Source: Escherichia coli (lineage in GTDB: Bacteria; Pseudomonadota; Gammaproteobacteria; Enterobacterales; Enterobacteriaceae). Taken from it: a stretch of 64,000 nt of DNA. The translations under genes were made by a program, and so were the position numbers. The stretch lies in assembly GCF_030013205.1 (NCBI RefSeq), contig NZ_CP122648.1. The stretch is one strand, 5' to 3'. Position 1 is the stretch's first letter. Each line of letters opens with the position of its first letter. Below the pieces are notes generated by a model. That model was not told the DNA's origin, made no database searches, and saw only the letters and a list, made by a program, of their open reading frames with translations. Below, one piece after another: positions 2,643 through 3,646 of this stretch.

Positions 2643-3026
2643 TCAGCGACCAATCACCACAACCTGACCACCATCCCCTTCGTCTGCCGTGCTGATCTCC
2701 TGAGAAACCACCCGCGACCCCACGCGCATTTCACCGTACAGAACGGGCAGAACATTGCCCTGGGCAACCATGTTATCCAGTGAGGAGAAATACGTATTCT
2801 GTTTGCCGTTATCCGTTGTCTGTGTACGGGGGGTTCTGGGTTTAGGGGCCAGCATCTGTGCAACACCGCCAAGCGTCATACTGGCACCGAGAGAAAACAG
2901 CAGATTGCTCGCCATAATTCCTACCCCCGGCATCCATATAGCAACCGCCATAACAGCAGCGCCCAGCACAGCCTGAAACACTCCGCCACTTTTAGCCCCA
3001 GCCAGACGCGGCACGATGTGGATCAC
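2643..3026 (-). pseudogene. Tail assembly protein I (lambda I-like), C-terminal part only
   Basis: …IHIVPRLAGAKSGGVFQ…KQNTYFSSLDNMVAQGNVLPVLYGEMRVGSRVVSQEISTADEGDGGQVVVIGR matches the lambda I C-terminus; N-terminal half missing, GTG at ORF start. Confidence 0.75.
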
Positions 3027-3081
3027 GGCACCATTCGCCAGCGGTTCATTAAGACGGGCTGATAATTCTGTTTCACCGGCA

Positions 3082-3447
3082 TCATGCCCGGCAATGCGTA
3101 CCTGATACCAGCGATGCGATATCCTGCTGGTGGATGAATGAGAGAATCTTCACCGACACCACCGATACCAGTACCGCACAAAGCGCGTCGAGAGATGTGC
3201 TGTGGAGATTCAATTTTTCGACCAGCCAGGACGCAAGGACATCCGCCCCCAGCACGCCAACAATGAACGACACCAGAAAATGCGCCGCCACACGCCAGAC
3301 AGAAATCACCTGTGGCATCGTGGCCACAAACAACGCCCCGGCAAACGCGCCAAACACAATCCCGAAATCCGTCCCGGTAAACAGCCCGAATACCGTCGCC
3401 CCGCCGAGCGCCACAGCAGTGCTGGAACCGGATAAGGGTTCAGACAT
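3082..3447 (-). CDS. Small integral membrane protein, holin-like (3 predicted TM segments), function unknown
   Basis: ATG at 3447 preceded by AGGAGA Shine-Dalgarno; Gly/Ala-rich hydrophobic segments; sits at the junction with truncated gene I. Confidence 0.45.
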   Translation of the reverse strand: MSEPLSGSSTAVALGGATVFGLFTGTDFGIVFGAFAGALFVATMPQVISVWRVAAHFLVSFIVGVLGADVLASWLVEKLNLHSTSLDALCAVLVSVVSVKILSFIHQQDIASLVSGTHCRA

Positions 3448-3646
3448 ATTTATTCTCCTGTAAATAAAAAGGACCATCAGCGGCCCCGTAACTGACATTT
3501 TATTAACGTTTGAAGATATGGATATTTATCAGGGTTTACCGTTTTCTGAACCCTGGATATGTTAAGCATTCAGCCGGCCAGTGGTGGGACGCTGGCTCAT
3601 CATAGAGAAAGAGGGATGGCTGATTACCTCTGATCAGGGAAATCAC

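Follow-up and report, generated by a model that had tools for sequence, protein, structure and literature searches.

A 3'-truncated Phage_holin_8 gene joined to tail gene I in a decayed lambdoid prophage of porcine Escherichia coli

Stranded holins are commonplace in defective prophages. In the cryptic prophages of Escherichia coli K-12, we take essD/rrrD of DLP12 and essQ/rrrQ of Qin to be stranded lysis genes of this kind. The holin of phage lambda, S105, is a small multi-helix inner-membrane protein whose basic cytoplasmic tail tunes timing, and it is said to carry a C-terminal regulatory domain.

A much closer relative of the gene described here is the 130-aa 'putative holin' whose gene comes right after stx2e in porcine STEC (Van hoorde et al., 2025; PMC12571312), for which the published cloning primers encode MSEPLSG... 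and ...GGNVK followed by the stop. Deletion of this holin in strain ETEC1717 abolished enrofloxacin-induced extracellular Stx2e and plasmid expression restored release; in trans, the gene also gave Stx2e release to two non-responsive strains (PMC12571312). Because this homologue, 78% identical to the protein studied here, was needed for fluoroquinolone-induced Stx2e release and could be complemented in trans, the study supports a pro-release, holin-like role of Phage_holin_8 rather than that of an antiholin. It is the only functional evidence for PF16931 that we found, and a literature search on Phage_holin_8, PF16931 and Phage_holin_3_7 returned no functional study under these family names.

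Here, we analyse a member of this family in a decayed prophage. Our reading, to which we give a probability of about 0.85, is that the gene was stranded from a phiP27-type cassette at the scar of a ~17.6-kb deletion and is a decay product, probably silent, whose core may still be membrane-active. The holin family and the annotation of both pieces in RefSeq (putative holin, incomplete tail assembly protein) were already known; the analysis locates the breakpoint to the base, explains where five foreign residues come from, sizes the deletion and links the scar to a porcine Stx2e lineage.

The prophage remnant and its holin gene

The window, a stretch of 64,000 nucleotides from E. coli (RefSeq assembly GCF_030013205.1, contig NZ_CP122648.1), carries a decayed lambdoid prophage (Table 1). 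From the tRNA side, the remnant consists of fragments of tfa, a tail fibre gene, J and I, then the holin, then Q, RusA, P and a truncated O, and finally dicB and the integrase. Read on the minus strand, in the order of late transcription, it starts with the integrase, dicB, truncated O, P, a ParDE pair, DUF968, RusA and Q, and continues with a late-region ORF with an internal stop, a small TrmB-like gene and a DNA methyltransferase (5072-6157). A 92-aa hypothetical gene and, on the opposite strand, a DUF1883 gene separate the methyltransferase from the holin, which is followed by the I, J, tail fibre and tfa fragments.

Table 1. Coordinates of features around the holin gene (positions in the window).
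Feature	Position	Strand	Remarks
Decayed lambdoid prophage	1..20300 (about)	-	between tRNA-Ser (serT side, beside hyaA) and yccA
5'-truncated tail assembly gene I	2643..3112	-	codons 45-200 + stop; first 133 nt gone; RefSeq, PHROG, alignment
3'-truncated Phage_holin_8 holin gene	3082..3447	-	121 aa + stop; family, alignment, RefSeq
Gene I-derived DNA in holin frame	3082..3103	-	S115, G116, then THCRA + TGA
Deletion junction, microhomology GCTGGTATC	3104..3112	-	once in window; in relatives, holin nt 336-344 and gene I nt 134-142
Shine-Dalgarno AGGAG	3455..3459	-	7 nt upstream of holin ATG; read from sequence
Terminator-like hairpin GGGGCCGCTGATGGTCCT + T-run	3460..3487	-	consensus match only; right upstream of Shine-Dalgarno
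DUF1883 gene	3647..3916	+	divergent from holin; same layout in intact relative
Antiterminator Q gene	7648..8313	-	promoter-like site 7640-7612 just downstream

Decay is not confined to the surroundings of the holin. The tfa gene is truncated too (512-877), a second junction in J at 2416/2417 leaves ~696 bp of its 5' part missing relative to the prophage of ETEC1721, and a third junction at ~1696-1704 joins J to the tail-fibre fragment. At the other end, the immunity/replication region (~14190-16435) is degraded: the O-like gene is without its N-terminus and neither cI nor cro is annotated. The same region contains ydfC, dicB and DUF1482, together with a 186-aa coiled-coil/zinc-ribbon-like ORF at 15046-15606, and downstream of it an exonuclease-domain gene has an internal stop. 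The interrupted late-region ORF (6679-7393) encodes a membrane protein, which is 237 aa long in E. coli N18-04097; in strain K_EC180 this gene is additionally interrupted by an IS1 that the window does not have. A ParD/ParE-type toxin-antitoxin pair inside the remnant is intact (~10140-10703, plus strand) and could help to stabilise it.

The holin ORF lies on the minus strand and runs from the ATG at 3447-3445 to the TGA at 3084-3082, encoding 121 aa (MSEPLSGSST...LVSGTHCRA). An ORF with a strong Shine-Dalgarno and a 121-aa product had been proposed in a preliminary description at 3026-3498; it is real, with the correction that the gene is on the minus strand. The start at 3447 is supported because nearly all aligned homologues begin with MSEPLSG. 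A 138-aa form beginning at ATG 3498 (mechanical ORF 3498-3082) was rejected, since there is no Shine-Dalgarno at that position and the homologues begin MSEPLSG. RefSeq PGAP annotates the same 121-aa CDS as WP_063085245.1, 'putative holin'.

The same description had proposed a holin on the strength of sequence features, and profile searches bear this out. The 121-aa protein matches Pfam PF16931 (Phage_holin_8) with 75.1 bits (gathering cut-off 26.4, E 6.6e-21) and PHROG 198 'holin' with E 3.3e-39, scores that put the ORF far beyond chance. The PF16931 match covers model positions 1-108 of 121, compared with 1-121 for the intact allele. Against the lambda-family holin model TIGR01594 (NCBIfam), the 121-aa protein scores only sub-threshold (13.4 bits; cut-off 55.05). 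The window protein is thus a degenerate member of a described Pfam/PHROG family, and is annotated so in RefSeq. The ORFs at 3134-3463 (+), 3202-3435 (+) and 3023-3181 (-) are without a Pfam match and were discarded as chance. Among the PADLOC anti-phage models, none matched the holin, the DUF1883 protein or the neighbouring 92-aa hypothetical protein; only the DNA methyltransferase of the prophage was matched (MTase_II models).

A complete prophage at the same tRNA-Ser/hyaA attachment site is found in E. coli N18-04097, whose DNA is 99.6-99.8% identical to the window from 3101 rightwards. Its 129-aa holin allele, WP_001315536.1, ends ...LVSGLFSRLRGGGGNVK and falls into one cluster with the window protein at 90% identity. 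The gene overlaps by 11 nt a 92-aa Phage_holin_3_7 gene, which is followed by a GH108/PG_binding_3 endolysin, small ORFs, and the terminase, portal, head and tail genes up to K, I and J. The order of two holin-like genes plus endolysin recurs in phiP27, Rac-SA53, ETEC1717 (stx2e prophage) and the ETEC1747 prophage, with an endolysin that varies: GH108 in N18-04097, a 'putative endolysin' in Rac-SA53 and an M15 peptidase in phiP27, ETEC1717 and ETEC1747. A Qin-type lysis cassette was also seen among the prophages compared. In the window, the holin is not beside an endolysin and the gene after it is the gene I remnant.

Ahead of the holin, the interval between it and the methyltransferase (3581-4553) holds the plus-strand DUF1883 gene and the 92-aa hypothetical gene (PHROG 2873). 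In phiP27 and ETEC1717 the equivalent slot contains tRNA genes and stx2eAB, and in Rac-SA53, an LT-II phage, a pertussis-like toxin operon lies upstream of the holin. The slot looks like a cargo ('moron') slot; unlike that of phiP27, the window has no tRNA genes.

The junction between the holin gene and gene I

We aligned, in gene orientation, the window, the 3' end of the N18-04097 holin (390 nt) and gene I of ETEC1721 (603 nt). This three-way alignment puts the breakpoint inside the holin ORF, at a 9-bp microhomology, GCTGGTATC. The holin row reads ...ATCGCATC GCTGGTATC CGGGCTG..., the window row ...ATCGCATC GCTGGTATC AGGTACGC... and the gene I row ...GAGCGACG GCTGGTATC AGGTACGC...; that is, the window matches the holin gene exactly upstream of GCTGGTATC and gene I exactly downstream of it. 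Identity to these relatives is 99.6-99.8% on the holin side (N18-04097) and 99.9% on the gene I side (ETEC1721).

Because the window matches the holin before the 9-mer and gene I after it, the junction points to a microhomology-mediated (illegitimate) deletion. A single illegitimate recombination between two copies of GCTGGTATC, the first lying 46 nt ahead of the holin stop and the second after 133 nt of tail gene I, would have deleted ~17.6 kb: the removed interval is 17,563 bp in the coordinates of N18-04097 and ~17,574 bp in HCP5S3_I2, where both ends likewise lie in a single prophage. Such an event would have taken with it the last 13 codons of the holin together with the second holin-like gene and the endolysin, as well as every packaging, head and tail gene through to codon 44 of gene I.

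The gene I side agrees with this picture. RefSeq/PGAP lists a tail assembly pseudogene at 2643-3113, and over I plus the start of J the fragment is 99.9% identical to the ETEC1721 prophage copy. Compared with the 200-aa ETEC1721 protein the first 44 codons are missing, and PHROG 32 matches only at profile positions 85-202 of 203, short of a full-length match. The real start of the gene I frame is lost, and the GTG at 3026 is merely the first start codon left in that frame.

The preliminary description had envisaged a large deletion that removed everything from the lysis cassette, after its holin, to the middle of gene I, and had proposed that alignment to intact relatives would locate the junction. 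Such an alignment does place it, at 3104-3112, and the intact N18-04097 prophage and the 9-bp junction support a large deletion. Its ends had to be moved: the break lies inside the holin and not after it, and gene I, although 5'-truncated, is cut at codon 45 of 200 and not in its middle. The loss of the rest of the cassette stands, with the refinement that the cassette had two holin-like genes, of which the second is gone. The 56-bp gap previously noted ahead of gene I is merely the distance to GTG 3026, and disappears once the homology is followed at the DNA level, where gene I reaches 3112 and shares 31 nt with the end of the holin ORF.

The two flanks could also have come together from two prophages or phage genomes, an N18-04097-like right arm recombining illegitimately with an ETEC1721-like tail module. 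Either origin would leave breakpoint, microhomology and protein product unchanged. A mixed origin would explain why the side from the holin to Q is 99.6-99.8% identical to the N18-04097 serT prophage while the I/J of that prophage is only 93.5% identical, and why the 99.9% identical I/J copies sit in prophages elsewhere with other lysis cassettes. However, lambdoid tail modules are notoriously mosaic, and the I/J of serT prophages that share this right arm varies (93.5% and 96.3% identity); the attR flank of the window matches the serT prophage; and ETEC1747 joins a 99% identical I/J and a Phage_holin_8 cassette within one prophage. We therefore consider two parental prophages unlikely, and prefer deletion within one. 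None of the matches inspected holds the exact ancestral pair, with this holin allele and the 99.9% gene I in a single serT prophage. The closest tail modules (ETEC1721, ETEC1747) sit in prophages at other loci, and the exact ancestor is an inferred one. As a scar, the holin/gene I junction is a well-resolved case of prophage decay by microhomology-mediated deletion, which matters little in itself.

The exchanged C-terminus and the prospects of expression

Residues 1-116 of the window protein are identical to the intact 129-aa WP_001315536.1, so that the hydrophobic core is complete; in place of the conserved tail LFSRLRGGGGNVK there is THCRA, an out-of-frame translation of gene I. A fused C-terminus, suspected in the preliminary description, is accordingly present. 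After the junction, the codons in the holin frame are TCA GGT ACG CAT TGC CGG GCA TGA; S115 and G116 are still encoded by gene I DNA, by chance synonymous.

The replaced tail is a conserved feature of the family. A search of a 5.8-billion-protein collection returned 194 members of the holin family, typically 128-131 aa long. The full-length homologues that we aligned come from Escherichia, Salmonella, Cronobacter, Citrobacter and Raoultella, and their common tail, G-[LV]-F-[SA]-R-x-R-G-G-G-G-(G)-N-x-[KRQ], is absent from the window holin. The tail of the relatives has two Arg and a terminal Lys, Arg or Gln, compared with a single Arg, of foreign origin, in THCRA. With regard to the features of the holin class, the window protein is small (121 aa) and has at least one predicted transmembrane helix, and it lacks the charged hydrophilic C-terminal tail. 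Allele P0064, another protein of 121 aa, is 99% identical over its first 78% and has a different foreign C-terminus; from its sequence, it stems from a separate truncation or fusion of this holin gene at another place. Such truncation scars of the holin gene therefore recur, with at least one other 121-aa allele carrying a different fused tail.

If the gene encoded an intact and conserved membrane protein other than a holin, and its 3' end were native, its homologues would be expected to end in the same way. The full-length homologues share instead a different, conserved 3' end (R-x-R-GGGG-N-x-K), and over its last 22 nt the ORF agrees with ETEC1721 gene I at 100% identity, in another frame. 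With nothing in its favour beyond the uninterrupted ORF, this explanation can practically be dismissed.

Three hydrophobic segments had been described for the protein. Hydropathy gives stretches at ~9-48, 53-76 and 86-105, in line with this; AlphaFold2, run on the 121-aa protein with a 30-sequence alignment, yields a low-confidence model (pLDDT 59.5, pTM 0.36) with four helices (7-24, 28-43, 50-79 and 84-120). Because the model splits the hydrophobic stretches into four, we speak of three to four membrane segments and not of exactly three.

Loss of the tail need not inactivate the protein. The C-terminal domain of lambda S is reportedly regulatory rather than essential; its transfer to Phage_holin_8 is an assumption. 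By analogy, the hydrophobic core of the truncated holin might still oligomerise and depolarise the membrane if expressed. If late transcription reached the gene, its product would enter the inner membrane, where it could still form oligomers and collapse the membrane potential; such damage would come with altered timing and without lysis. No lysis is possible from the window locus, because neither endolysin nor spanin remains. The ORF is uninterrupted and keeps its strong Shine-Dalgarno in every genome that carries it; since the carrier lineage is near-clonal, this says little about function.

Late transcription would presumably have to come from Q, which lies ~4 kb upstream of the holin, and Q-dependent late transcription is unlikely because the early region is damaged. 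Terminator-like hairpins on the holin strand are found at 6321-6304, 4251-4234 and 3487-3470, all as consensus matches only. The local fold of the last one (3460-3487) is no stabler than shuffled sequence (z 0.23). Upstream of the stx2e-linked holin, the sequence known from a published primer (GGGCCGCTGGTGGCCCTTTTTTATTT) forms a better hairpin than 3460-3487, and because it occupies the corresponding place it suggests a conserved terminator ahead of the holin, which would be read through by Q-modified polymerase. Being ~4 kb past Q behind terminator-like hairpins, in a remnant with a truncated O and no annotated cI or cro, the holin is probably silent. We regard it as probably a decay product rather than an adapted gene, silent under normal conditions.

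A further question is whether Phage_holin_8 is the holin of its cassette at all. It may be an accessory or regulatory membrane protein, with the 92-aa Phage_holin_3_7 as the true holin, so that the stranded gene alone would be without lytic potential. The two adjacent holin-like genes, with ends overlapping by 11 nt, are found in every relative examined; both Pfam families are only 'putative', and the literature search found no direct lysis assay for PF16931. On the other hand, toxin was no longer released when the Phage_holin_8 gene was deleted, and release returned when the gene was supplied in trans; two non-responsive strains also gained release from the gene in trans, the opposite of what an antiholin would do (PMC12571312). 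We hold an accessory role to be improbable.

The carrier lineage, Stx2e release and described relatives

The junction is present, in identical form, in 17 of 5,426 complete E. coli genomes, all 17 from swine. The window is 100% identical in pig-derived E. coli including O139:H1 strains, K_EC180 and a Belgian/Czech/Dutch 'ETEC' series, and the exact 121-aa protein is found on 188 contigs, compared with 769 for the intact allele. The identical junction in all 17 genomes and the exact protein on 188 contigs fit one clonally inherited event.

The carriers are exactly those genomes in which the holin of the stx2e locus itself has been reduced to its first 59 nt. In ETEC1748, the stx2e prophage, near ompW/yciE, has the first 59 nt of the Phage_holin_8 gene (6683-6741 of the locus examined), followed by terminase fragments. 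Seven carriers appear in the S1 table of the porcine STEC study (1748, 4067, 4068, 4069, 4070, 4075 and 4079; PMC12571312). They secrete 0.48-1.17 ng/mL Stx2e, which is low or low-moderate; none of the seven responds to ciprofloxacin/enrofloxacin, and in all seven extracellular Stx2e goes up in bile (PMC12571312). As 0/7 respond to fluoroquinolones, the window allele brings no visible compensation for the lost stx2e-linked holin under SOS; lineage, the condition of the stx2e prophage and possible further holin copies confound this comparison of carrier secretion.

The truncated holin could nevertheless still be active and serve its host lineage as a membrane effector that acts without lysis, for instance by helping to release Stx2e or other cargo of the periplasm or cytoplasm under certain stresses. 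Predicted transmembrane helices and residues 1-116 are intact and one Arg is left in the new tail; a PF16931 homologue promotes Stx2e release in porcine STEC, the carriers lost the holin beside their own stx2e operon (59 nt left), and 7/7 of those in the S1 table raise extracellular Stx2e in bile (PMC12571312). Yet the bile response is confounded with lineage, the same seven carriers are low secretors with 0/7 fluoroquinolone-responsive (PMC12571312), the conserved C-terminal motif is lost and the early region of the remnant is damaged. The published phenotype may, moreover, be holin-endolysin lysis, which is impossible at the window locus. More specifically, the study states that there is no endolysin downstream of stx2e (PMC12571312), but in the knock-out strain ETEC1717 we find a Phage_holin_3_7 gene and a Peptidase_M15_4 gene (phiP27 endolysin-like) directly after the holin (4065-4720 of the locus examined). 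Because ETEC1717 carries Peptidase_M15_4 after the holin pair, the release may be ordinary holin-endolysin lysis, and the interpretation as 'non-lytic secretion' may need revisiting.

Taking these points together, we think a role as effector quite unlikely. Less probable still is its most specific form, in which the tail-swapped holin would be kept and expressed in the F18+/Stx2e oedema-disease lineage as a non-lytic permeabiliser that aids Stx2e release under stress such as bile; if true, it would take over from the holin lost beside stx2e. For a probably silent decay product, wider relevance is limited to porcine Stx2e E. coli, where the carrier lineage has lost its stx2e-linked holin and is a low, fluoroquinolone-unresponsive secretor. 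In counts of the 'holin gene' in porcine Stx2e genomes, the window copy should be recognised as one without the conserved C-terminal tail and without lysis partners.

Among described genes, the nearest is WP_001315536.1 ('putative holin'), found in the N18-04097 serT prophage and in many other E. coli. It shares with the window gene the attachment site, the upstream DUF1883 gene, the Shine-Dalgarno and the start; it ends in LFSRLRGGGGNVK and is followed by Phage_holin_3_7, the GH108 endolysin and a full structural region, whereas the window gene ends in THCRA and runs into the gene I remnant. The holin L28 of the Stx2e phage phiP27 (NP_543080) also belongs to PF16931 and is 83% identical to the window holin, and that of ETEC1717, again PF16931, is 78% identical. 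The phiP27 and porcine STEC holins (WP_032083190 / WP_001372436) occupy the same place as the window gene, opening the cassette behind Q, the DNA methyltransferase and the cargo slot. They are full length, directly follow stx2eAB and precede a second holin-like gene and an M15 peptidase, whereas the window copy is truncated, unlinked to stx2e and without lysis partners.

Lambda S105 has no sequence relationship to the window holin, and the likeness between the two is by analogy. The stranded holins of K-12 resemble the present case in their history, having been left in defective lambdoid prophages after other late genes were lost. They belong to class II, S21-like holin families and usually keep the endolysin and an intact holin reading frame.
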